Assembly (NCBI GenBank): GCA_046861645.1
Contig: JBHHUM010000051.1
Span: 1-14,416 of the forward strand
Direction of reading: 5' to 3'
Origin: Fidelibacterota bacterium
Lineage (GTDB): Bacteria; Fidelibacterota; Marinisomatia; Marinisomatales; UBA2128
DNA: 14,416 nt
The notes under the pieces: model-generated
The model's database searches: none
The model's input: only the letters and a program-made list of their open reading frames with translations
Told to the model about the DNA's origin: nothing
Shown here: piece after piece, positions 269 to 14,070 of the stretch
Numbering within the stretch: the first letter of the stretch is position 1
Layout: each line of letters begins with the position of its first letter
Translations under genes and position numbers: made by a program

Positions 269-733
269 TTAGTCTTCTGAATAGGAGATCTTCTTATTAG
301 AAAAGAAGAGTTCGTTTACCAAGACTGTGTGAGTGGACACTCCAGGCAGATCATTTTGGATTGAGCGGACGACTTGGTTCAAATCTTGAATATCTCTTGT
401 ACGAATTTTAATGGTGATATGTTTCTCGTCAACTGTTGTGTTTGCAACTCTGACACCATTAATTTTTAATATGTATTTAATAGTAGCTTCTTCAACCTCT
501 GTTGTTAAAGATGTCTGAAAAATTATATCAACGTAAGCTATAATTGGTTTTCCAAGGAGGTCATGGTCTAAGTCAACAGTAAACTTTTTGATATAACCAG
601 CCGCGGAGAGATTGTTTACTCTTCTGGTTACGGCCTGCCTTGTGAGGCCAATTAGCCTTCCCAACTCAATGAAGGGAATCCGACCATCATCCTGTAGAAC
701 ATCCAAGATCTTAAAGTCAATATTGTCAAGCAT
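269..733 (-). CDS. Lrp/AsnC family transcriptional regulator (154 aa)
   Basis: N-terminal MLDNIDFKILDVLQDDGRIPFIELGRLIGLTRQAVTRRVNNLSAAGYIKKF is the AsnC-type HTH. It is followed by the LGKPIIAYVDI linker and a RAM-like C-terminal domain. RBS GAGGGGAGG at 749-741. Confidence 0.93.
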   Translation of the reverse strand: MLDNIDFKILDVLQDDGRIPFIELGRLIGLTRQAVTRRVNNLSAAGYIKKFTVDLDHDLLGKPIIAYVDIIFQTSLTTEVEEATIKYILKINGVRVANTTVDEKHITIKIRTRDIQDLNQVVRSIQNDLPGVSTHTVLVNELFFSNKKISYSED

Positions 734-893: not shown

Positions 894-955
894 TGTAACA
901 TTGTGTCCATATTATCAAGCAGTGGAACAAAGATAGAAACAACTTGGGAGGAAAT

Positions 956-3577
956 ATGAACAGAATAAATACAAGCCTGTTATATATCCTTTTGTGCCTT
1001 TTTCCGGTTGCAGCAATGGCACAGGGAACAATTACAGGTACAGTAACAGACAGTGATGGAAGTGCTGTTGTAGGCGCCAACGTTTTCCTCGATGGCACGA
1101 ACATGGGAGACGCCACTGACGCCAACGGTGATTTTACTATCGCTGATGTCCCCGCAGGCGGCTACACAATAATAGCCAGCGCTATTGGCTATAAAACAGG
1201 TAAAGATGCCATTGTTATTACCGACGGTGTTGTAACTGCTAGCTTCACTTTGGGCACTGATATTCTTGGTATGGATGCTGTTGTAATAACAGGTGTTCTT
1301 AATCCGACATCCAAACTTGAGTCGAGCGTTGCTATTTCCACAGCGGATGCCGTGGAAATTTCTCAACGTGCCCCAAGGAATACGGCCGATCTTCTGAAAT
1401 ACATTCCAGGGTTCTATGTTGAGAGCTCCGGTGGCGAAGGTGGAAACAACCTCTTCACCCGCGGGATTCCCGCTGATGGTAGTTTCCGTTACGTGTCAGT
1501 ACAGGAAGATGGGATGCCAGTTTTTAATGCACCGGAGTGCATGTTTTTCAATGTGGACCTTGCAGTGAGGATGGACGAAAATATCCAACGTATGGAGAGT
1601 GTCCGCGGTGGCTCCGGATCAATATTAGCTTCTAATGCTGCAGGTGGCATCATCAATTACATCAGTAAAACGGGTGGTGCTAAATTTGGCGGGTCAGCAA
1701 AATTTACCACTGGAGATTATGGAATGTACCGCACAGATTTAGAATTTGGTGGCCCTCTTGGGGAGAATATCCGCTATCACATGGGTGGCTTTTATCGTAC
1801 AGATCAGGGGATTCGACCCACTGGTTTTACCGCTAATCAAGGTGGTCAAATTAAAGGCAACCTGACCTACTTGATGGATAAAGGGTACATTCGGTTGTAC
1901 GGGAAATATCTCAACGATCGCAATGTTTTTTACCTGCCGGTCCCCCTAAGTGGTTTAGATGAAGAACTGGAAGGTTTTGATGCCAACTATGGCACGATGA
2001 CCAGTCTAGATTTACTCTATCTCAATGTACGTAAGCCCGAGGGCCGCGGATATCAAGAGCAGTATCTAGATGACGGTATGCATCCTACCCTGTATACAGT
2101 TGGCAGCGAATTGTCGTATGAACTAAGTGACAATCTCTTGCTGCGCAACAAGATGAAACGCTCAGTTCTGGATCATCAGTTCAACGCCATTTTCTCATTG
2201 AACGATCCATCTCTGGCAGGTGATTATGCTACTGCGGCCGGTGTTACTGATCCGGTTTGGAGTTATGTCAGAGGAGAAGGTGCTGGAGATACTATTAGCG
2301 ACATCAGTAACCTCAATGGCAACGGATTGGTAGTGGATGTCGGTTGGTGGGCAGTTACCATGCCCATGAATGATTTTGCCAACGATTTATCATTGACAAG
2401 AAGTTTGGGCAGTCATGATGTTACCTTAGGGTATTGGTTTTCCTATGATAAACAGGAAGCACACTGGTGGTGGCATAACGTACTAATGGAGATAGCTGAA
2501 AATCCGCGTGCATTAGATTTACTGGATAGTGATACTGGTATCTATTACACGGATAACGGATTTTCCAAGTATGGATCCATGTACTTGAACTATGAATTCA
2601 CCAATTTCGTAAACGCCTTTTACCTGAATGATGAATTCACCATAGGTGACATGACGATTAATGCCGGATTGCGATCCGAATCGGGTACAATAAACGGAAT
2701 GACTGAAAACACTCAAAACTACGATATGGCTGACACCACAACTATGGCTGATGATGCTGTTCTGTATGGAGATGGTACCTATGGAACCTGGGGTTTTGAG
2801 TATGATGAGCTGGCGTGGTCCGTAGGGTTGAACTACAAAATGAGTGATAACATGGCAGTGTTTGGTCGTGCTAGCAACGGTTTCCGGGCACCAGATGACA
2901 ACAATCTTGTGTTTTCCAAGGCTGAGGGATCCCGAGTTGAGGATATATCTCAATTTGAGATAGGCGGAAAATACAATTCACCAAACTTGGCAACATTTGC
3001 GACTTTCTTCTACAGCACATTAAATGACTTCCCGTTCGGCGACGAAGTCGTAGGTGATGACGGATCAATTACCAACTTGACTCGTTACGCCGATGCTATA
3101 GCAATGGGAACTGAGATTGAATTAATTGCCAAGCTTGGCAATATTGGTCTTAATTTCACTGGGACCGTTCAAGATATAACCTACAGGGACTATGTCTTCA
3201 CAATAGGTGGAGTAACCACGGACTTTGAAGGCAAACAAGTCCGCCGTATTCCCAAGATCTTTTTCACCCTGATGCCATCATATACCATGGGTGATTTGTT
3301 TGTCAATGTGACCATACAGCATTTTGGCGACCGCTTTACGGATGATGCCAACACTGAAAGCGCCAAACTACCCGGGTTTATCCAGTTTAACGCTGGAGCG
3401 ACCTATCAATGGGGTGATCTAGCGTTTTCGGTAAATGCGACTAACTTGACCAATACAATTGGTCTTACGGAAGGGAATCCTCGAACTGAGTCAGTGCTGG
3501 CTGGTGAGAAATCCTTCCGTATGGCCCGTCCTATCATGGGTCGTTCACTTATAGCATCCTTGGCCTACAATTTTTAA
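956..3577 (+). CDS. TonB-dependent outer-membrane receptor, probably sugar/disaccharide-specific, with an N-terminal carboxypeptidase-regulatory-like domain
   Basis: True start is probably ATG 956 (GGAGG RBS), not TTG 944. Features: signal peptide ending AMA|Q, GTITGTVTDSDGSAVVGANV...TDANGDFTIADVPAGGYTIIASAIGY domain, TonB-box-like DAVVITG, plug motifs ADLLKYIPGFYV and IQRMESVRGG...AAGGIINYISK, C-terminal NLTN...GRSLIASLAYNF ending in Phe. Confidence 0.95.
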   Translation: MNRINTSLLYILLCLFPVAAMAQGTITGTVTDSDGSAVVGANVFLDGTNMGDATDANGDFTIADVPAGGYTIIASAIGYKTGKDAIVITDGVVTASFTLGTDILGMDAVVITGVLNPTSKLESSVAISTADAVEISQRAPRNTADLLKYIPGFYVESSGGEGGNNLFTRGIPADGSFRYVSVQEDGMPVFNAPECMFFNVDLAVRMDENIQRMESVRGGSGSILASNAAGGIINYISKTGGAKFGGSAKFTTGDYGMYRTDLEFGGPLGENIRYHMGGFYRTDQGIRPTGFTANQGGQIKGNLTYLMDKGYIRLYGKYLNDRNVFYLPVPLSGLDEELEGFDANYGTMTSLDLLYLNVRKPEGRGYQEQYLDDGMHPTLYTVGSELSYELSDNLLLRNKMKRSVLDHQFNAIFSLNDPSLAGDYATAAGVTDPVWSYVRGEGAGDTISDISNLNGNGLVVDVGWWAVTMPMNDFANDLSLTRSLGSHDVTLGYWFSYDKQEAHWWWHNVLMEIAENPRALDLLDSDTGIYYTDNGFSKYGSMYLNYEFTNFVNAFYLNDEFTIGDMTINAGLRSESGTINGMTENTQNYDMADTTTMADDAVLYGDGTYGTWGFEYDELAWSVGLNYKMSDNMAVFGRASNGFRAPDDNNLVFSKAEGSRVEDISQFEIGGKYNSPNLATFATFFYSTLNDFPFGDEVVGDDGSITNLTRYADAIAMGTEIELIAKLGNIGLNFTGTVQDITYRDYVFTIGGVTTDFEGKQVRRIPKIFFTLMPSYTMGDLFVNVTIQHFGDRFTDDANTESAKLPGFIQFNAGATYQWGDLAFSVNATNLTNTIGLTEGNPRTESVLAGEKSFRMARPIMGRSLIASLAYNF

Positions 3578-3712: not shown

Positions 3713-5308
3713 GTGCAACCTTACAAACTACATCCAATTGATTTGTCGATTGCAGGACTATACGTAGTATTTGTTATTGGCTTGGGTATTTATCTGGCAA
3801 GGAGCCACAAGGGCGCAGAGGATTATTTTCTTGGAGGAAGGACATTCATCTGGCCCCTGGTTGGATTGTCTTTGTACGCCTCCAATATGTCGAGCAGTAG
3901 TCTGGTAGGCATGGCTGGGAGTGCTTATGGAACGGGCATCTCCGTTTTCAACTACGAATGGATGGCTGCTGTAATACTAGTTTTCTTTGCAATTTTCTTT
4001 TTACCCTATCTGCTCCGGTCGCAGGTATTCACATTACCGGAGTTTCTTGAGCGGCGATACGATTCCAGGTCACGATTCTACTTCTCAGGTCTCAATATTC
4101 TAATGACTATCGTTATTGACACTGCTGCCACACTGTATGCCGGAGCCATTGCTATAAGTATAGTCTACCCCGATATTCCCATGTGGATGACCATGATGAT
4201 ATTAGCCGTCATTGCCGGTATATACACCACGGCAGGAGGGCTGTCAGCCGTTATTCTGACTGATGCTATACAAGCCGTTCTTCTTACGGTTGGATCTCTA
4301 ATTATAACCGTTCTTGCTTTTATAAAGATTGGCTCTTGGAGTGCTGTTACCGAAGTGATCCCTCCCGAGATGCTTCACCTGTTTATGCCTTTGGATAATG
4401 AGTTTTTGCCTTGGCTTGGTGTATTAACTGGGGTACCTATTCTGGGGTTTTACTTCTGGTGTACAAATCAGTTTATGGTTCAGCGGGTTCTCGCAGCAAA
4501 AAATGTAGATCATGGCCGATGGGGCGCCTTGTTTGCAGGTCTTATGAAGCTCCCACCTATTTTCATTATGGTTTTACCGGGTACGATGGCTCGTGTACTT
4601 TATCCAGATCTTCCAAGAGCTGATATGGCGTTTCCGCAATTAGTATTTGATCTATTGCCAATTGGTATTCGTGGAGTGATTGTGGCTGGGTTTTTAGCCG
4701 CCATTATGTCCAGCTTGGATTCTACTCTTAATTCTGCTTCAACCCTTCTAACAATGGACTTTTTCAAAAAGCTTCGTCCCAAATCGAGTAGTCGAGAACT
4801 TATGTGGGCAGGTCGCATTTTCACTTTCATATTTATGATTTTGGCAGCTTCGTGGGCTCCACAAATATTGAAGTTTCCCTCTCTTTGGCATTATCTTCAG
4901 AGTGTGCTGGCCTATGCCAGCCCACCCATCGTAGCACTTTATTTGGTGGGTTTGTTCTGGAAAAGGGCAAATAGTCATGGAGCCTTTGCGGGAATAATCG
5001 TAGGCTTCATTTTGGGTATAGGACAACTCATTCTCAGATTTATCTTTCCGGATGCTTCATGGCTACCTCAAATTCATTTTCTTTATATGGCAGCTATCCT
5101 GTTAATATTATCGACTGTTACTATAATAGTTGTTAGTCTGTTAACAGAGGCTCCAGAGATGGAAAAGGTTAAGAGCTATATTTGGACACCTAAGCACTAC
5201 CGGGCGGAAACCGAGGAACTGAGATCTCTACCATGGTATAAGAATTATCGCATACTTGCTGGTGGACTACTTGTGCTGACTATTGTAGTCGTAGGCATGT
5301 TTGCATAG
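3713..5308 (+). CDS. Sodium:solute symporter (SLC5/SGLT-like), probable Na+/sugar cotransporter
   Basis: GTG start with AGGAGG RBS. Motifs EDYFLGGR, GLSLYASNMSS, TLPEFLERRYD, YTTAGGLSAVILTDAIQ, YFWCTNQFMVQRVLAAK and AAIMSSLDSTLNSASTLLTMDFF; many hydrophobic segments. Confidence 0.95.
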   Translation: MQPYKLHPIDLSIAGLYVVFVIGLGIYLARSHKGAEDYFLGGRTFIWPLVGLSLYASNMSSSSLVGMAGSAYGTGISVFNYEWMAAVILVFFAIFFLPYLLRSQVFTLPEFLERRYDSRSRFYFSGLNILMTIVIDTAATLYAGAIAISIVYPDIPMWMTMMILAVIAGIYTTAGGLSAVILTDAIQAVLLTVGSLIITVLAFIKIGSWSAVTEVIPPEMLHLFMPLDNEFLPWLGVLTGVPILGFYFWCTNQFMVQRVLAAKNVDHGRWGALFAGLMKLPPIFIMVLPGTMARVLYPDLPRADMAFPQLVFDLLPIGIRGVIVAGFLAAIMSSLDSTLNSASTLLTMDFFKKLRPKSSSRELMWAGRIFTFIFMILAASWAPQILKFPSLWHYLQSVLAYASPPIVALYLVGLFWKRANSHGAFAGIIVGFILGIGQLILRFIFPDASWLPQIHFLYMAAILLILSTVTIIVVSLLTEAPEMEKVKSYIWTPKHYRAETEELRSLPWYKNYRILAGGLLVLTIVVVGMFA

Positions 5309-5333: not shown

Positions 5334-6830
5334 ATGCATATCGCATTTCTTAATCCTCAGGGTAACTTTGATCCAACCGATTATGGGTGGACACAACACC
5401 CGGACTTTGGGGGGCAACTCGTTTATGTTAAGGAAGTTGCTTTGGCCATGGGTGAAGACGACCATCGTGTTGACATTATTACCAGGCAGATTGATGATAC
5501 AAATTGGCCAGAGTTTGCGGGGCGAATTGACGGTTATCTGGGGCACGATAATGTTCGTATTCTACGATTCCCTTGTGGACCACTCCATTTTCTTAAAAAG
5601 GAAGATATGTGGCCGTACATTTATGAATGGGTTAACAATATCTTGTTATTCTACGAAAACAAACCTGCCTTCCCGGATATCTTCACAGGGCACTATGCCG
5701 ATGGTGGTTTAGCAGGTGCGATGATTCTAAATGAGCGAGGAAAACCGTACACGTTCACTGGCCACAGCCTAGGTGCTCAAAAAATGGATAAGCTCATTGT
5801 AGGAGAAGAAATATTTTTAGAAAAAGTCCGCCATTTTCACTTTGATAAACGGATCACTGCTGAGAGATTAGCTATGAGTAGTGCTAGCAGAATAATCACA
5901 AGCACGAAACAAGAACGTATGATTCAATACGGGCACCATCTCTATGAAGATGCCGTTGATACATCTGACGAGGGGAAGTTTGCTGTCATTCCGCCGGGAG
6001 TAAATTTGAGCATATTTGCCAGAGATTTGCAGGACATTGAGATTCCCGAGAAAGTTGAGAGGATGATTAAGCGGGATATCAGCGAGTCTCGCCGAAATCT
6101 ACCGTTGGTTATCTGTTCCAGTCGATTAGACCGTAAGAAGAATCATCTTGATTTAGTCAAAGCGTGGGCTGTAAGCCCGAAACTGAAGGCATCTGCCAAC
6201 CTTGCGATTATTACTCGCGGGTCGGAGAATCCTATGGAAGAATGGATGGAACTGTTTTCAGGTGAAGAACAAACTGTCTTTGGGGAAATAATGGATGTTA
6301 TAGAAAATCATGATTTGGCCGGATGCATCACTGCATTCAGCTTGAACAGCCAAACAGAATTGGCAGCTTGTTATCAATACCTTGCAAAAAACTTGCAGGG
6401 AATCTTTGCACTAACTGCGGTTTATGAACCTTTTGGGTTGGCGCCGCTTGAAGCCATCGCATCTGGACTGCCTGTTGTCGTGACTAAAAATGGTGGACCC
6501 AGTGAGAGCTTGAAAGATAAAAACGGAAAATATGGGGTACTGGTTGATCCTCAAGACCCGCAAGACATTGCAGAAGGCATACTGCTCTTAGCGACAGACG
6601 TGAATTACTGGAAAAGAATGCGGGCAGTTGGAAGGAAGAGGGTTCAGGACAAATATACTTGGCAGAAGACGGCAAAGGGATACTTTGATGTATTTGAATC
6701 TATTCTATCTGATATAAGCCAACAGGACAAGAGGGTGGTTATCCCACAGTACTTTTACAACTCAGATGTTGTAGACGTGACACCGGAAGAATTGCGGGAT
6801 CGGTATTTTATGAAAGAGAAATCAGTGTGA
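5334..6830 (+). CDS. Sucrose-phosphate synthase-like GT4 glycosyltransferase (single domain, Halothermothrix orenii SPS type, no SPP domain)
   Basis: HIAFLNPQGNFDP...HPDFGGQLVYVKEV, FTGHSLGAQKM, STKQER..QYGHHLY, VIPPGVN, SSRLDRKKNH and YEPFGLAPLEAIASGLPVVVTKNGGP closely match H. orenii SPS as I recall it. Start is probably ATG 5334 rather than TTG 5301. Confidence 0.88.
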   Translation: MHIAFLNPQGNFDPTDYGWTQHPDFGGQLVYVKEVALAMGEDDHRVDIITRQIDDTNWPEFAGRIDGYLGHDNVRILRFPCGPLHFLKKEDMWPYIYEWVNNILLFYENKPAFPDIFTGHYADGGLAGAMILNERGKPYTFTGHSLGAQKMDKLIVGEEIFLEKVRHFHFDKRITAERLAMSSASRIITSTKQERMIQYGHHLYEDAVDTSDEGKFAVIPPGVNLSIFARDLQDIEIPEKVERMIKRDISESRRNLPLVICSSRLDRKKNHLDLVKAWAVSPKLKASANLAIITRGSENPMEEWMELFSGEEQTVFGEIMDVIENHDLAGCITAFSLNSQTELAACYQYLAKNLQGIFALTAVYEPFGLAPLEAIASGLPVVVTKNGGPSESLKDKNGKYGVLVDPQDPQDIAEGILLLATDVNYWKRMRAVGRKRVQDKYTWQKTAKGYFDVFESILSDISQQDKRVVIPQYFYNSDVVDVTPEELRDRYFMKEKSV

Positions 6831-7474
6831 TGATTGGGGATAAATTGATGATAAAGGAGAAACATCATCGGGCTGCCCGCGGCGTATTGGAGAACACTCT
6901 GACGGAAAGACAACAAGTGGCTGGCAGATATGTGATTACTATTGCGGGAGAATCGGGAAGTGGAAAATCTGAGACGGCCGTTGCATTGGCGGAAGGCTTT
7001 TCCAAGGATGGTGTGAACAGCGTTATTCTCCAGCAAGATGATTATTTTGTTTATCCCCCAAAGACCAACGATGCCACTCGCAGAAAAGACATTGGCTGGG
7101 TTGGTCCACAAGAGGTCCGTTTGGACCTGCTGGACAAACATCTTGAGATGGTCCTACAGGGATCGGAATCAATAACCAAGCCACTGGTCATTTACAAAGA
7201 AGATCAGACTACTGATGAAACGATATCCCTAACAAACGTTAAAGTCGTTATTGCTGAAGGTACCTATACAACCATGCTGAAAAATGCTAACTGCCGTGTC
7301 TTCATTGACCTGACCTATCATGCTACGAAAGCCTCTCGGTTAGAACGTGCCAGGGAAGAGCAAGATGACTTCATTGAGAAGGTCCTTAAAATTGAACACA
7401 AGATTATTTCAAAACACAAGGCGCGAGCAGATTTGATCATAGATCGGGACTTCAATGTCACGAAAGTCGGATAA
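6827..7474 (+). CDS. Uridine-kinase/phosphoribulokinase-fold P-loop kinase, substrate unknown
   Basis: ITIAGESGSGKS Walker A, QDDYF, VVIAEGTY and the RLERARE lid follow the PRK/URK/PanK pattern. The start (GTG 6827 or ATG 6830) overlaps the upstream TGA. Confidence 0.8.
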   Translation: MMIGDKLMIKEKHHRAARGVLENTLTERQQVAGRYVITIAGESGSGKSETAVALAEGFSKDGVNSVILQQDDYFVYPPKTNDATRRKDIGWVGPQEVRLDLLDKHLEMVLQGSESITKPLVIYKEDQTTDETISLTNVKVVIAEGTYTTMLKNANCRVFIDLTYHATKASRLERAREEQDDFIEKVLKIEHKIISKHKARADLIIDRDFNVTKVG

Positions 7475-8861
7475 GACTATAAATTCTCTGAGAGCCGAAC
7501 ATTTTCACCGCTCTTTTCTAAGTTCGGATAAGGGGCACATTCTGATGATCTCAAATCATGGGATTCATCAGTGGAATATTGTGCCGGGACTGCCTGATAC
7601 AGGGGGGCAGAACGTTTATGTAAACCAGTTTTCGGATATGCTGGCCAAGTTAGGTTTCAGAATCACCATTGCTAATCGTGGAGGATACAAGCATCCTATT
7701 ACCGATGAGATGCACAGGGGATTACATTATAAAAATGATAAACAGAGAATCCTCTACGTCGAGGATGACAAAGACAAGTTCATGCGCAAGGAGGATATGA
7801 ATGAGCAAATCCCAAAGCTCGCTCAGTTCCTCTTTGATTTTATCGAAAATGAAGGGACTATAGTTGACCTGATTATATCGCATTATTGGGATGGGTTTAA
7901 ACTGGGCGTTTTCTTCTGCCGGAAGTATGCCCACCCCATCAGGCACATATGGGTTCCCCATTCACTCGGGGTTGTGAAGAAACAGAATATGGACCCGAGT
8001 ACTTGGGAAATGCTTCGGATTGATGAACGGATTGAAATAGAGAGATCACTCCTTGAGGAATTGGATGGAGTTGTAGCCACCTCCACGGTAATTCGTAAAT
8101 CATTGCAGCAGGATTACAGCTGTAAGGAGCCCCTTTTTCTTCCGCCATGTATTGACACTGAGCGCTTCTATCCCCGTCAGATTGAAGATAACCACAATAT
8201 ATGGAAATTTCTCTCTGATTGTACAGATTTACCAGCGGACACTCTCCATCGGTATAAAATAGTTACTGAGATCAGTCGTACAGATCACACCAAGAGAAAG
8301 GATGTGCTGATTAAGGCATTTACACAGGTTCAACAGCGTGTTAAGGACTGTGTTCTGATCATTTCCATTGATGAAACGGAAGAGCAGCTATCAGCGGAGT
8401 TGCACAAGCTGATTGATAAACTCGGGATACGATCCCATACAGTAGTTATTGGTCATGAGCATGAACGCTTACCAGACATTTACAGGATCACAGATGTTTA
8501 CTGTTCTCCATCGGTTATGGAAGGTTTCGGGATGTCGGTGCAGGAAGCTGCCGCAACGGGGGTGCCTGTGGTGAGTAGTCGTTTGATTCCCTTTGCCGTT
8601 GAGTATTTAGCTGAAGGATATGGGGGTGAGCCGTTCTACAAAGGAAAAGGAGCGATTGTCGTTCAGGCAGATGATGTGGACAGATTCTCCATGGCGCTGG
8701 AGGAGCTGCTGGAGAATAACACACTTCGGTCCGAGATGGGCAGACAGGCATATCACATTACCATTCCGGAATTCACCTGGGAGCAAAAAGTTAAGGAGCT
8801 TTTGAGCGCCATTGACAGCATTCCTACCAGTGAAAAGGAGGGTGTTGGCGATTATGCCTGA
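7455..8861 (+). CDS. GT4 glycosyltransferase, SPS/mannosylfructose-phosphate synthase (MfpsA)-like; specificity unknown
   Basis: LMISNHG...GLPDTGGQNVYV, SHYWDG, WVPHSLG, PPCIDTERFYP, ISRTDHTK and the EX7E motif MEGFGMSVQEAAATGVPVV. The DTGGQ.VYV signature marks the SPS/SuS/MfpsA clade. Confidence 0.85.
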   Translation: MSRKSDKTINSLRAEHFHRSFLSSDKGHILMISNHGIHQWNIVPGLPDTGGQNVYVNQFSDMLAKLGFRITIANRGGYKHPITDEMHRGLHYKNDKQRILYVEDDKDKFMRKEDMNEQIPKLAQFLFDFIENEGTIVDLIISHYWDGFKLGVFFCRKYAHPIRHIWVPHSLGVVKKQNMDPSTWEMLRIDERIEIERSLLEELDGVVATSTVIRKSLQQDYSCKEPLFLPPCIDTERFYPRQIEDNHNIWKFLSDCTDLPADTLHRYKIVTEISRTDHTKRKDVLIKAFTQVQQRVKDCVLIISIDETEEQLSAELHKLIDKLGIRSHTVVIGHEHERLPDIYRITDVYCSPSVMEGFGMSVQEAAATGVPVVSSRLIPFAVEYLAEGYGGEPFYKGKGAIVVQADDVDRFSMALEELLENNTLRSEMGRQAYHITIPEFTWEQKVKELLSAIDSIPTSEKEGVGDYA

Positions 8862-9948
8862 CTTTTTAGAACATGACAAGCTCAAAAAGATTCTTCAGTC
8901 TTCATCTGTAAGTAGGTTGCCTATGGAAAAGTTGATTGCTCTTTTTAGGGAAGAGGATGCTCTGAATGAAATGCTTCCGGACAGGAAATGGGTGCAGGAT
9001 CCGCGGGACAAATCAGTGACGCTTTTTAATCCTTCCCGATCTAAAAGACCCCACGAGCACAAAGACCGTGTAAAGACTGTTAAAAACAACTCATGTCCTA
9101 TATGTGAAGGACATACCACAGATGTTATTGATGTCGCTGAGTTGAGCGAAGGATTTACATTTATTAACAAGAATCTGTATCCCATCGTATATCCATTTGC
9201 GTCTGATAGTAACAGAGACGAACAAACTGCTTTTGGTTTCCATCTCCTGCAATGGACATCTTCCTATCACAATCGTGATTGGCACAACATGCCGCTTAGT
9301 GATCGTATTATAGTACTGCAGCGTTTGGCGGCCCTGGAAGAAATGTTTCTGTATGGGACAAAAACTGGAATTACTGGAAATGAGCAGTGGAACAACGACA
9401 AGGGTATTAGCAGGTTTGTATCCATTATCAAGAACTATGGTCGCTCAGCAGGGTGCTCTCTAATCCACGGTCACCAGCAGATTGCATTCAGCAATGTGAT
9501 GCCGGGGCGATTTCAGAATAACCTCAGTTTTTACCAGAGAAAGCAGCGCTCATTTTCTGCCTATATGTTTGAGCAAACCCCAGTAGACTTGGTCTTGAAA
9601 GATTATGGACAAGCCGTTTTGGCGGTTCCTTACTTCATGAAGCGACCTTACGATATGATTCTTATGATTAAGGAGACTAAAAAGCAATATCTGTGCGAGC
9701 TTAGTCATTCAGAAATTGAATCTGTTGCAGAAGGGCTCTGTGATACTATGAGACTGTACCGGAATATTCTACCTAAGATTGGACGAGATGTAGCGTTTAA
9801 TTGGGTTCTACACAACGGCCCAGGGGTTGGACTGTATTTTGAGTTTTTACCTAATACCCAAGAGATGGGAGGATTTGAAAAGTTGGGTTTATGGGTTTGT
9901 CAAAGCAACCCGGAGATGGCGGCAGCAGACCTGAGAGAAGTACTGTGA
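8854..9948 (+). CDS. GalT-like (HIT superfamily) hexose-1-phosphate nucleotidyltransferase / NDP-sugar phosphorylase
   Basis: RSKRPH, zinc-binding CPIC, NLYP and KNYGRSAGCSLIHGHQQI (catalytic HxHxQ). Start is probably ATG 8854 (GGAGGG RBS, ATGCCTGA overlap with the upstream stop) rather than TTG 8812. Confidence 0.85.
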   Translation: MPDFLEHDKLKKILQSSSVSRLPMEKLIALFREEDALNEMLPDRKWVQDPRDKSVTLFNPSRSKRPHEHKDRVKTVKNNSCPICEGHTTDVIDVAELSEGFTFINKNLYPIVYPFASDSNRDEQTAFGFHLLQWTSSYHNRDWHNMPLSDRIIVLQRLAALEEMFLYGTKTGITGNEQWNNDKGISRFVSIIKNYGRSAGCSLIHGHQQIAFSNVMPGRFQNNLSFYQRKQRSFSAYMFEQTPVDLVLKDYGQAVLAVPYFMKRPYDMILMIKETKKQYLCELSHSEIESVAEGLCDTMRLYRNILPKIGRDVAFNWVLHNGPGVGLYFEFLPNTQEMGGFEKLGLWVCQSNPEMAAADLREVL

Positions 9949-9967: not shown

Positions 9968-11839
9968 ATGATTGATCTAATAATAGTATTAGTCTTTATT
10001 GCCTACAGTGTTAGCGCTGGTTTCCGGGCCAAGTCTAAAGCCTCCAGAAACCTTGAGGAGTACTTCTTAGCTGGCCGGACGATTCCTGGCTGGAAAGCAG
10101 GTTTCAGCATGGCTGCCACTCAGTATGCGGCAGACACACCACTATTGGTCATGGGGTTGATTGCTACCGGCGGCGTCTTTATGCTTTGGCGGTTGTGGAT
10201 ATATGGTCTGGCATTTCTCATGATGGGATTTATCCTGGGCCGGGCCTGGCGCAGGTCTATGGTTCTAACAGATGCGGAGTTTACAGAAATCCGCTACAGC
10301 GGCCGCGGTGTTGTTGCCCTCCGTGGACTCAAAGCCGTTTATTATGGCACTGTGATTAACTGCACAGTAATGGCTATGGTTCTAGTGGCCGCCATTAGAA
10401 TTTCGGAGACATTTCTGGTTTGGCATGAGTGGCTTCCCGAAGGAATCTATAACACAATACTAATGTGGGTGCAGTCCATCGGCGCTCAACTCTTCTCTGG
10501 TGCGACAGGATTAGACCCATGGATTGCCACGGCTAATAATATAGTCAGTATAATTGTAATTCTGGCGTTTGTGGCTCTCTATTCCACTACAGGTGGTCTC
10601 CGCAGTGTAATTGCCACGGATATCGTACAGTTTTCCATCGCTATGATTGCTACACTGATTTATGCCATTATCGCAGTTTCCAAGGCAGGAGGATTCGGCG
10701 GCATGATTGATAGGTTGGTAGCGCTTTACGGTGAGGCGCGTGCTGGAGAGATTTTGTCCTTCAGCCCGAACAGTTGGGATGCTGTGCTTCCATTCCTGGT
10801 GCTGATCGGGCTGCAGTGGTTTTTTCAGATGAACAGCGATGGAACCGGCTACCTTGCCCAGCGGACTATGGCTTGCCGTACGGATCGTGGAGCCCGGCAG
10901 GCAGGATTTATCTTTACAGTGGCACAGATTCTTGTCCGGTCTCTCTTCTGGCTGCCTATCGGTGTAGCGCTGCTGGTGATCTATCCGTACGATCCAGGAT
11001 CTGTAGGCAGCGAAACATTTGTAGCCGGCCGCGAAATCCTGTTTGCTACCGGCATCAAAGACCTCCTACCACCCGGCATCCGGGGATTGATGCTGACAGG
11101 ATTACTGGCAGCGTTAGCTTCCACAATTGATACGCACCTGACATGGGGGGCAAGCTATTGGAGTAATGATATCTACAAGCGGATTGTGAACGAAGCGTGG
11201 CTTAAGAGGCAGCCGTCGTCACGAGAGTTGGTAATCGTGGCCCGTTTATCGAATCTGCTCATTCTTGGCATTGCACTGGTTATTATGGCTAATCTTGGTT
11301 CCATACAGGCAGCGTGGTATATTTCGCTTCTTTTCGGGGCAGGAATGGGTTCGGTTTTAGTACTGCGCTGGCTGTGGGAAAGGATAAACCTCTATTCGGA
11401 AGTAGCAGCCATCGCTACGTCTTTAATTGTGGCGCCGGTTATTCTCTTTACAATAGAAGACGAGTGGTTTCGATTGCTGCTTATGTCTGCGGCCTCCACA
11501 ATTTCCGTCGTAGTTGTAACACTGCTGACGCCTGAGACTGAGCACAGCATCCTGGACAGGTTTTTCCGGAGGGTGAAGCCCTTAGGCTTCTGGAGAGGCA
11601 CTGCAAAGCGCTGCGGCATCGGCGCAGAAATCCCCCTCAAACAGTTTAAACAAGGAGCGTACCTGGTACTGACTACAGCCCTAACAATATTTCTACTGTT
11701 AGTAGGCATTGGAAAGCTCATTATTCCGGCTCCATCTAGCTCTTCTTTGTTTGCGTTCGCGTTGATAGTGTTGGGGTTGGTCAGCATAAAATTGTGGTGG
11801 GGTAAAGTGATTGTTGCTAAAGAGGTAGAAAATGATTGA
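9968..11839 (+). CDS. Second sodium:solute symporter (SSS family, different subfamily from 3713-5308)
   Basis: EEYFLAGRTIPGW, SMAATQYAADTPL, YSTTGGLRSVIATDIVQF, GTGYLAQRTMAC and AALASTIDTHLTWGASYWSNDIY; GAGGA RBS; polytopic membrane protein. Confidence 0.93.
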   Translation: MIDLIIVLVFIAYSVSAGFRAKSKASRNLEEYFLAGRTIPGWKAGFSMAATQYAADTPLLVMGLIATGGVFMLWRLWIYGLAFLMMGFILGRAWRRSMVLTDAEFTEIRYSGRGVVALRGLKAVYYGTVINCTVMAMVLVAAIRISETFLVWHEWLPEGIYNTILMWVQSIGAQLFSGATGLDPWIATANNIVSIIVILAFVALYSTTGGLRSVIATDIVQFSIAMIATLIYAIIAVSKAGGFGGMIDRLVALYGEARAGEILSFSPNSWDAVLPFLVLIGLQWFFQMNSDGTGYLAQRTMACRTDRGARQAGFIFTVAQILVRSLFWLPIGVALLVIYPYDPGSVGSETFVAGREILFATGIKDLLPPGIRGLMLTGLLAALASTIDTHLTWGASYWSNDIYKRIVNEAWLKRQPSSRELVIVARLSNLLILGIALVIMANLGSIQAAWYISLLFGAGMGSVLVLRWLWERINLYSEVAAIATSLIVAPVILFTIEDEWFRLLLMSAASTISVVVVTLLTPETEHSILDRFFRRVKPLGFWRGTAKRCGIGAEIPLKQFKQGAYLVLTTALTIFLLLVGIGKLIIPAPSSSSLFAFALIVLGLVSIKLWWGKVIVAKEVEND

Positions 11840-11890: not shown

Positions 11891-13108
11891 ATGAGATTTC
11901 TTGATGATTACAGGGGAATTGTTAGTGATGAGGTGTTGGAGACCATCTGCTCCAAGGCGGCCACTTTGAGCGGTATCAGAATGGCACACGTAAACGCTAC
12001 TGCTTATGGGGGTGGTGTAGCGGAGATCCTTAGCAATCTTATCCTCCTGATGAATGATGTGGGGGTAAGGGCGGACTGGCGCGTGCTGCATGGAACACCG
12101 GAATTTTTCGAGGTAACTAAGAAATTTCATAACACACTGCAAGGGGACAATGAAATATCCTTTTCGCAGGAGGAACTTGACCTCTACAAATACACAAATG
12201 AGAAGTTTGCCAAGTTTGTCGATCTTGGTCATGATGTGGTAATTATACATGACCCTCAGCCCGCGGCCCTGGTACACTACATTGAGCACTCCCATCCTTG
12301 GGTCTGGCGCTGCCATATTGATATTACCAAGCCTAACCAGAAGGCGTGGGACTTTATGGCGCAGTATGTGGTAGAATATAATAAGATGATTGTCTCAGCT
12401 GAAGCTTACAAGCGCCCCGATCTGCAGCTTGAACAGCAGATTATGGCGCCGTCCATTGACCCACTGTCTAATAAAAATATGGATCTGTCGCAGAATACAA
12501 TTGATGACTACTTGACACGGGAGAATATTCCCACAGACAAGCCTATCATCACACAAGTCTCGCGCTTCGATCCGTGGAAGGATCCTGAGGGGGTACTTAG
12601 GGTATGGGAGGAAGTCAGGAAGGAAGTGGACTGCCGCCTGGTTTTCTGCTACAACATGGCTAGCGATGATCCGGAGGGAGTTCGCATATATGAGAAAATG
12701 GTCGCAGTGGTCAAGCAGCACATGGAAAATGGAGACGTCCTCTTTATACGCGGAGATGATCCTATTCTTGTGAATGTTCTCCAACGGTATTCCTCAGTGG
12801 TACTCCAGAAATCGATCCGGGAAGGATTCGCCCTGGTGGTAACAGAAGCGCTATGGAAGGGCACTCCTGTTGTGGCGTCGAATGTAGGGGGTATTCCGAC
12901 CCAGATCAAAGACGGAGAGACAGGGTTCTTAGTGGAGCCGCAGGACATTTCCGGATGTACAGCCAAGGTCATTCAGCTTCTTCAGGATAGAGATTTGGCT
13001 GGCGAGATCGGGTCAAAAGCCCGGGAGTATGTGAGGGAGAATTTTCTTATTACAAGGCACCTGCAAGATTATCTCAACTTATTGGTTGAACTGCTGGAAA
13101 GGAAATAA
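11891..13108 (+). CDS. treT: Trehalose glycosyltransferring synthase TreT-like GT4
   Basis: HVNATAYGGGVAEIL, FFEVTKKFHNTLQG, IIHDPQPAAL, WVWRCHID, PSIDPLSNKN, QVSRFDPWKDP and QKSIREGFALVVTEALWKGTPVVASNVGGIP are TreT family signatures. Confidence 0.88.
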   Translation: MRFLDDYRGIVSDEVLETICSKAATLSGIRMAHVNATAYGGGVAEILSNLILLMNDVGVRADWRVLHGTPEFFEVTKKFHNTLQGDNEISFSQEELDLYKYTNEKFAKFVDLGHDVVIIHDPQPAALVHYIEHSHPWVWRCHIDITKPNQKAWDFMAQYVVEYNKMIVSAEAYKRPDLQLEQQIMAPSIDPLSNKNMDLSQNTIDDYLTRENIPTDKPIITQVSRFDPWKDPEGVLRVWEEVRKEVDCRLVFCYNMASDDPEGVRIYEKMVAVVKQHMENGDVLFIRGDDPILVNVLQRYSSVVLQKSIREGFALVVTEALWKGTPVVASNVGGIPTQIKDGETGFLVEPQDISGCTAKVIQLLQDRDLAGEIGSKAREYVRENFLITRHLQDYLNLLVELLERK

Positions 13109-13110
13109 TT

Positions 13111-14070
13111 GTGAGCGGAGCTGAAAAGTACATTGGTGGTATTGATCTGGGCGGTACCAAGATAGCCGCCATTGTATCCACTGAAGAGGGAAAGATTCTT
13201 GCTAAAGACAAGGTTTCCACGCCCAATGGAAAGTTCAGTGTGATCGCAGCAACAATGGTACAGAGTCTTACCAGAGTATGTGATATAGCTTCCGTTTCCA
13301 TCGAGGATCTCCATGCTATTGGGGTGGGCGTGCCCGGTTCGGTAGATGAACAAGGTAATGTGGCTGTAATGCCTAACTTGGGGCTGAAGAACATTGCCGT
13401 TGCTTCGGTATTGAGCGAAGTATTTGACAAGCCCGTTGCCGTAGAGAATGATGTAAATCTGGCTACACTGGCTGAATATTTCCTTGGGGCAGGAGAAGGG
13501 CTGAATTCTCTGTACGGCATTGTGCCGGGGACAGGAGTTGGCGGCGGTTACGTCGCGAATGGGAAGATTGTGAGAGGGAAAAACGGAACGGCCGGCGAGA
13601 TTGGTCACATGGTGGTGAAGATGGATGGAACCCGGTGTGGTTGCGGGCAAAAAGGGTGTCTGGAAGCGTTTGTCAGCAAGATTGGATTCGCCCAGGAGTT
13701 GCGGGGAGCAGTCTTGAGAGGCGAAGATTCAGTTTTGATGAAACACAAGGATAATGATTTTAAAACGGTTAACAGCCCAGCCCTGAGAAGTGCGTGGGAT
13801 GCAGGTGATAAGCTGACCCGCCAACTTCTAGTCGAGCAGGCTCGCATACTTGGTATTGCTGTGGCGAATGTTGTAAATCTCACCGGAGTCGAAGGCTTCT
13901 TCATAGGCGGGGGAGTCTATGAGATTCTTGGAAATGTCCTTCTCCCCATTATCTGGGAGACTGCCGAGCGACACGCAATTGGCGGCGGGATGTCTGGTGT
14001 GCGGTTGGCCTTGTCGGGATTGGGAGGAGACGCCGTCGCAATGGGGGCTGCTCTATTAGCGAGAAAATAG
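13111..14070 (+). CDS. ROK family sugar kinase (glucokinase-like)
   Basis: GIDLGGTKI, IGVGVPG, VENDVN, GTGVGGG, AGEIGHM and the zinc motif CGCGQKGCLEAF. No N-terminal HTH, so a kinase rather than a repressor. GTG start 2 nt after the treT stop. Confidence 0.93.
   Translation: MSGAEKYIGGIDLGGTKIAAIVSTEEGKILAKDKVSTPNGKFSVIAATMVQSLTRVCDIASVSIEDLHAIGVGVPGSVDEQGNVAVMPNLGLKNIAVASVLSEVFDKPVAVENDVNLATLAEYFLGAGEGLNSLYGIVPGTGVGGGYVANGKIVRGKNGTAGEIGHMVVKMDGTRCGCGQKGCLEAFVSKIGFAQELRGAVLRGEDSVLMKHKDNDFKTVNSPALRSAWDAGDKLTRQLLVEQARILGIAVANVVNLTGVEGFFIGGGVYEILGNVLLPIIWETAERHAIGGGMSGVRLALSGLGGDAVAMGAALLARK

Follow-up and report, generated by a model that had tools for sequence, protein, structure and literature searches.

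Sucrose-phosphate synthase (SPS) is described as reversible, with sucrose-phosphate phosphatase (SPP) pulling it towards synthesis (PMC9971976), and the enzyme of Halothermothrix orenii, a structural model of sucrose synthesis, has been suggested to make sucrose as an osmolyte (PMC2626281). Sucrose 6F-phosphate (S6FP) is also the substrate of the GH13_18 phosphorylases, for which GFDVHQ and KXXYYQ are given as motifs, the first type being promiscuous towards sucrose and the second strict (PMC7178133). A kinase lies beside both characterized S6FP phosphorylase loci, where import of S6FP was proposed (PMC6521584), and the isolated sucrose-kinase domain (RgSK, ~215 residues) of AgaSK, modelled on the uridine kinase 3ASY, phosphorylates sucrose (PMC7688924). 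The 14,416-nucleotide window analyzed here, one whole contig (JBHHUM010000051.1) of the Fidelibacterota bacterium assembly GCA_046861645.1, carries a Halothermothrix-type SPS gene whose stop codon overlaps the start of a P-loop kinase gene (Table 1). We find that this kinase is neither an orphan nor a uridine kinase and that, as judged by sequence and predicted structure, its closest characterized relative is the AgaSK sucrose-kinase domain. We propose that it probably phosphorylates imported sucrose at C6 of the fructose moiety, that SPS then runs in reverse, and that a GalT-like protein recycles the nucleoside diphosphate (NDP).

The SPS-like open reading frame is intact (ATG 5334 to TGA 6828–6830), and Pfam finds only GT4 domains in its product with no HAD/SPP part, in agreement with a preliminary description of this locus. 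The protein matches H. orenii SPS (PDB 2R60/2R66/2R68) over nearly its full length (2R60 residues 2–479; 550 bits, E 5e-164), shares its stand-alone GT4 architecture, and keeps the GGQ, K-E, H-Y, HSLG, R, R..K and E-P-F-G motifs in the alignment, the residues of which we take to form the acceptor site in H. orenii SPS. On TIGR02472 it scores 281 bits, below the cut-off of 576. The two enzymes differ in setting: the H. orenii protein is read in print as an osmolyte maker, whereas the window SPS is grouped with a kinase and importers, in a genome where no phosphatase was found. The overlap with the kinase gene (GTGATG, 6827–6832) had been correctly placed from the outset, the SPS TGA overlapping the kinase ATG at 6830 (TGATG). 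Initiation at GTG 6827 would give the 215 residues originally ascribed to the kinase; ATG 6830, which gives 214, is the likelier start because homologues begin with M-x-G-D, M1 being 90% conserved.

The kinase has a Walker A motif (GESGSGKS), an aspartate (D70) and a score of 40 bits on PF00485. It had been called an orphan, a label that does not hold: of 5541 candidates, 5212 were relatives at E<=0.001, clustering at 50% identity gave 783 representatives, and the AgaSK domain is a characterized relative. The distribution is patchy: in searches that scored 7–20 candidates per genome, the kinase was found in 2 of 151 genomes sampled from its own phylum, the window genome counted, and in 2 of 401 and 6 of 301 genomes of two further samples. 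The automatic name of the family, "uridine kinase", would together with the PF00485 match and the common fold suit an ordinary uridine/cytidine kinase, or an enzyme recycling nucleotides for the glycosyltransferases, as the preliminary description had allowed. We regard this as highly improbable. The kinase falls below the Udk cut-offs (66 vs. 220 bits on TIGR00235; 65 vs. 180 bits on PRK05480), and a canonical Udk is encoded on another contig of the genome (C75; 146 bits on PF00485). What is shared with Udk (TIGR00235; PDB 3ASY, human UCK2) is the fold, the Walker A motif and the catalytic Asp position, whereas the Udk motifs D-H-P and Y-D...H, to which we presume acceptor roles, are replaced by V-G-P and L-V-I-Y in an alignment with five Udks. 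The family also forms a separate clade, and its gene context is another one, with neighbours such as GH13_18 and GH100-like enzymes that use no nucleotide.

Structure prediction, as proposed in the preliminary description, points instead to AgaSK. An AlphaFold model from 118 sequences (pLDDT 96.8) matched solved PanK, UCK, PRK and 3C8U structures at the level of the fold only (TM 0.58–0.67); the best solved structure gave Z 19.1 with a root-mean-square deviation of 2.3 over 175 aligned residues at 19% identity, and none stands out as close. A structure search of the Atlas, in which both sides are predicted models, returned a 935-residue AgaSK cluster with TM 0.92 over 207 residues. A replicon of Agathobacter rectalis encodes an AgaSK orthologue. 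Its first 719 residues match 2YFN (1401 bits), and its C-terminal domain shares 32% identity with the kinase across 193 residues (E 8e-19). Our 114-row family profile scored 114.5 bits on this domain vs. 62 on the genome's own Udk. A 41-row tree, comprising one sucrose-kinase domain sequence and no PRK or 1RZ3-type rows, separated the family and the AgaSK domain from five Udks, YggC and CoaA with support of 100/99. Seven residues (P77, N80, G92, E95, T145, R175 and E189) are common to the family and the AgaSK domain and occur in none of the five Udks. The window kinase thus resembles RgSK of Ruminococcus gnavus E1 AgaSK (UniProt G4T4R7) in being a URK-fold unit of ~215 residues with common acceptor-side residues, and in belonging to a family with S6FP phosphorylase neighbours. 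It differs in that it stands alone beside SPS, whereas AgaSK is fused to a GH36 alpha-galactosidase, a part that had no tblastn match in the window genome.

The pairing of kinase and SPS is not chance. In the best 80 of 142 GTDB loci of the kinase, 73 have a co-directional, adjacent GT4 gene of SPS type within 300 bases, which bears out the association with GT4 genes that the preliminary description had suggested looking for. The GT4 is closest to the window SPS at 19 of these and to a second SPS-like type at 54, and DxGGQ and related SPS motifs are kept in 61 of 61 full-length GT4 neighbours aligned. The other seven loci have an unnamed GH13-like gene (three), a GH100-like gene (two) or neither (two). 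Importers and LacI regulators lie beside the kinase–SPS pair at related loci.

A second kind of partner acts on the proposed product itself. In a 301-genome sample around a Chloroflexi metagenome-assembled genome (MAG), four of five new kinases immediately precede, on the upstream side, a GH13_18 gene that in every case has GFDVHQ; these pairs sit behind ATP-binding-cassette (ABC) importer-like genes, and the kinases are 45–49% identical to that of the window. The A. rectalis AgaSK orthologue precedes an enzyme with KNIYYQ (KxxYYQ). Fusions extend the series: 37 long kinase-bearing proteins comprise 15 GH100-like, 15 GT4 and 2 oligo-1,6-glucosidase-like GH13 fusions, 1 with an unnamed GH13-like partner, 2 with GH13_18 sequence and 2 without partner assignment. 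In P0126, the kinase is fused to a TtSPP-like enzyme with GFDVHQ (675 bits for 6S9V vs. 440 for the best sucrose phosphorylase), and in P0131, which may be an artefact of assembly, its partner is a C-terminal fragment carrying KISYYQ. Beyond ABC-ATPase noise, a second search for long proteins yielded just three more fusions, all GH100-like, and AgaSK was not among its matches. The S6FP phosphorylases (TtSPP 6S9V, RgSPP, IcSPP 6S9U) and the window SPS thus have the same kinase family as neighbour; the difference is that the phosphorylases do in one enzyme what we propose for two here.

Based on these observations, we propose the following route: (i) the TonB-dependent receptor and sodium symporter would import the sugar, presumably sucrose; (ii) the kinase would convert sucrose and ATP to S6FP and ADP, substrate and position being suggested by fold and kinship; (iii) SPS, reversible according to the literature, would convert S6FP and NDP to NDP-glucose and fructose 6-phosphate; and (iv) the GalT-like protein would release glucose 1-phosphate from NDP-glucose with phosphate, recycling the NDP. 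Steps (iii) and (iv) would add up to S6FP + phosphate → glucose 1-phosphate + fructose 6-phosphate, the GH13_18 S6FP phosphorylase reaction. For trehalose, TreT and the ROK kinase may provide a parallel route that likewise runs a synthase in reverse; TreT has been described as reversible (PMC13597711). A fructosyl-6' sucrose kinase driving SPS backwards had been raised in the preliminary description; kinship to AgaSK, coupling to S6FP phosphorylases, co-occurrence with SPS and scarcity of SPP favour it. The direction also draws support from the importers, LacI regulators and HIT-family proteins encoded beside the pair, and from the window genome, where no other sucrose-splitting enzyme was found. 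Support is partial because the substrate is deduced, AgaSK is reported to act at glucose C6, and the fructokinase alternative discussed below survives.

The position of the phosphate is the first point on which this scheme can be challenged. The AgaSK product is stated to carry it on C6 of glucose (sucrose-6G-phosphate), with citation of a 2011 paper (PMC7688924), and this is the only experimental statement on a product of the family (PMC7688924, PMC6521584). The window kinase might share this regiochemistry, its product passing to another hydrolase while SPS has a separate role, an arrangement we consider decidedly improbable. Neither SPS nor S6FP phosphorylase is described as using the 6G isomer, yet these are the usual neighbours of the family, and a full-length GH32 was not found in the window genome. 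In a complex of the SPS from Thermosynechococcus elongatus (T. elongatus), the 6-OH of glucose is buried on the essential catalytic His158 and the fructose phosphate is held by two arginines (PMC7264703). A 6G-phosphate should not fit SPS because of this buried contact, and the kinase product, if it enters SPS, would therefore have to be the 6F isomer. The context of the window kinase hence calls for 6F where the published AgaSK product is 6G.

Next, we asked what the genomes hold in the way of phosphatases and other sucrose enzymes. In the window genome, PF05116 and TIGR01484 (HAD-IIB) gave no match, while controls matched in 10 and 14 of 14; absence of SPP is not proven, because the genome is only 94.5% complete. 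GH13_18, GH100-like and full-length GH32 enzymes were not found there, nor was another sucrose-splitting enzyme; phosphofructokinase, two PfkB kinases and a ROK kinase are present. Of the 80 genomes with the kinase, 50 were searched: TIGR02471 gave no match over cut-off, six weak matches and a single full-length one (G008, 106 bits), and PF05116 matched 10, strongly only in G008. We also reversed the test and started from SPS, taking 80 of the 367 metagenome loci confirmed to carry the window type, many of them short, which were found with an SPS alignment as query, a single SPS query having returned no relatives in metagenome or viral contigs. Profile searches found no SPP-like gene in these 80 SPS-centred loci; 23 have the kinase only, 29 a PfkB only, 3 both and 25 neither (Fisher p 2.6e-4, which kinship among the loci makes look stronger than it is). 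SPP, whose anti-correlation with the kinase the preliminary description had suggested testing, is thus scarce in both sets, with exceptions in G008 and L077.

Several results weigh against a sucrose kinase feeding a reversed SPS. The AgaSK domain sits on a long branch (5.19) in the tree and differs from the family at P118, G144, Y146 and H190 as well as by a 10-residue insertion. G008 has its SPP-like gene elsewhere in the genome than the kinase locus, and in L077 an SPP-like HAD gene (879–1628; 139 bits, cut-off 210) lies directly upstream of kinase and GT4; the trehalose-phosphatase genes near the L043 and L079 loci likewise depart from the phosphatase-free pattern. GlgC makes ADP-glucose, and its genes, found beside 11 of 19 SPS-type loci, suit synthesis no less than breakdown. 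Where the GT4 is of the other type (54 loci), a recurrent transporter is mostly absent from the adjoining genes. The comparison is further limited by the incompleteness of MAGs and by kinship among the loci. A PfkB like the H. orenii "fructokinase" 3HJ6, as judged by the best match of a fused copy, takes the place of the kinase at 29 of 80 SPS loci. Finally, TtSPP-type enzymes also split plain sucrose, so a fructokinase beside them would serve equally.

Much of this bears on the other candidate of the preliminary description, a fructokinase supplying fructose 6-phosphate. Such an enzyme would serve a forward SPS with an unrecognised phosphatase, and elsewhere would salvage fructose from invertase-like or phosphorylase partners. 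We consider it unlikely and place it below the sucrose kinase. The near-exclusive swap with the 3HJ6-like PfkB is the best argument for it, one that falls if those PfkBs are sucrose kinases too; GlgC neighbours and the L077 gene point the same way, as do sps-spp-fructokinase-amylosucrase operons (PMC9971976), GH100-like and oligo-1,6-glucosidase-like fusion partners that would free fructose, and the common fold with the putative fructose-transport kinase 3C8U (Z 17.4). The kinase, however, scores 18–26 bits against cut-offs of 227–281 on PRK09270 (FrcK/YggC-type putative fructokinase), YggC, placed outside the clade, has few of the signature residues of the family, and the closest characterized relative is a sucrose kinase. 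Strict KxxYYQ phosphorylases free no fructose, the genome already has a ROK and two PfkB kinases, and forward synthesis would need a phosphatase that was found neither in the window genome nor, over cut-off, in the 50 genomes.

The second SPS-like GT4 and TreT in the window raise the possibility that the kinase follows the same logic with mannosylfructose, trehalose or another alpha-glucoside, in partnership with TreT or the second GT4. JGI gives the name mannosylfructose-phosphate synthase to some fused GT4s, and TreS and GH65/trehalose-phosphatase genes lie near some loci (the trehalose-phosphatase gene in L043 and L079); a literature search on mannosylfructose found nothing relevant. The gene coupled to the kinase is, however, a close relative of H. 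orenii SPS, the closest kinases (58–62%) directly follow the same SPS type without a second GT4 (L001, L002, L089–L094, L097), and partners of known specificity act on S6FP. Another disaccharide is thus quite unlikely.

Sucrose as substrate invites a wider proposal, which we advance tentatively and with less confidence than the route above: that the widespread family labelled "uridine kinase" is the missing sucrose 6F-kinase independent of the phosphotransferase system and the source of S6FP for bacterial S6FP phosphorylases, that the AgaSK product assignment needs revising, that phosphatase-free bacterial SPSs, the Halothermothrix type included, may be catabolic, and that the PfkBs at SPS loci could have arrived at sucrose phosphorylation convergently, as a second kinase for this sugar. 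In many uncultured anaerobes, sps in the absence of spp would then mark sucrose breakdown, not the making of an osmolyte, and S6FP could be prepared enzymatically from sucrose and ATP in one step. With this family, the source of bacterial S6FP becomes directly testable. In the literature covered, which excluded most subscription papers, we found no paper on a sucrose kinase coupled to SPS or on a catabolic SPS.

Table 1. Genes of the window with positions, strand and basis of assignment.
Feature	Position	Strand	Basis
Lrp/AsnC-family regulator, divergent	269..733	-	Pfam and open reading frame calls
TonB-dependent outer-membrane receptor	944..3577	+	Pfam; start 944 or 956 uncertain
Sodium:solute symporter, directly 5' of SPS	3713..5308	+	Profile matches
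Halothermothrix-type SPS, GT4, 498 residues, without phosphatase domain; proposed reverse direction	5334..6830	+	Pfam, TIGR02472, 2R60, motifs
AgaSK-related P-loop kinase, PRK/URK/PanK fold, 214 residues; proposed sucrose 6F-kinase	6830..7474	+	Profile, structure, tree
Second GT4 with SPS-like motifs, 468 residues	7455..8861	+	Profile matches, motif alignment
GalT/HIT-family protein, HxHxQ motif; proposed NDP-glucose phosphorylase	8854..9948	+	Best PDB match At5g18200
Second sodium:solute symporter	9968..11839	+	Profile matches
TreT-like glycosyl-transferring trehalose synthase	11891..13108	+	PF21269; NF041139 417 bits, cut-off 775
ROK-family hexose kinase	13111..14070	+	Profile matches

All genes from the receptor to the ROK kinase share one strand, the regulator alone being divergent, and the start of the second GT4 (23% identical to the window SPS) overlaps the kinase stop TAA at 7472–7474. 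Relatives of the first symporter with 61–69% identity adjoin kinase and GH100-like genes in L003 and L062. The regulator is of the Lrp/AsnC type, where related loci have a sugar-binding LacI instead, and it did not recur across the 80 kinase loci. A scan for promoters and terminators was at chance level (27 vs. 26.1; 16 vs. 12.0).

The GalT-like protein has its best PDB match in Arabidopsis At5g18200 (1Z84; E 1.7e-8), described as an ADP-glucose phosphorylase (PMC6329318); HxHxQ is intact in the window protein, whereas the relationship is distant (37 bits) and the specificity predicted only. A GalT-like gene occurs in 14 of the 80 SPS-centred loci, and the pair of second GT4 and GalT-like gene recurs, there upstream of SPS, in L098, L104, L107, L110, L121, L139 and L161. 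Another HxHxQ protein, DUF4922, is encoded at 14 of the 19 SPS-type GTDB loci (L040:6332–7408 and 13 others), divergent from kinase–SPS in Proteobacteria and often with glgC. It has no pairwise similarity to the window protein (E 7), and both are grouped as HIT-type on the strength of Pfam and their HxHxQ motif. DUF4922 is a candidate NDP-glucose phosphorylase, which would give this domain a function.

Some further variants concern the partners of SPS. The L077 SPP-like gene may be either a counter-example or part of a sucrose/sucrose-phosphate cycle. H. orenii-type SPSs fused to a C-terminal PfkB with an altered GAGD motif (GARD, GGRD, GGSD) occur in L108 (3–2627), L121 (3998–6439), L126 (1599–4166) and others, and in some cases an additional PfkB gene, this one intact, comes next; the fused domain is possibly non-catalytic or regulatory.

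A divergent sister subfamily of the kinase (~31% identity, N80 replaced by R) is present in one to three copies in ~30 genomes of a 301-genome phylum sample, where none of the tested sugar genes lies nearby (L193–L219; L112:3327–3980; L151:1883–2536; L170:214–864). It comes after a GH65 gene in L112, where that gene is fused to beta-PGM, and in L151, which hints at a kinase of trehalose or kojibiose type. A GH13-like protein of ~700 residues, unnamed and without Pfam match, lies directly after the kinase or is fused to it (L004:3812–5935, L058, L075, L178, P0121); the Atlas returned "hypothetical" clusters first, and it is a candidate new sugar-phosphate-splitting enzyme. The distant GH100-like family adjoins or is fused to the kinase in L003 (6754–7923), L062, L082 (8769–9923), L191, L192 and P0141–P0150, often with a sugar transporter, and its members may be sucrose-phosphate hydrolases. 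One carrier, Gemmatirosa kalamazoonensis (L082), is in culture.

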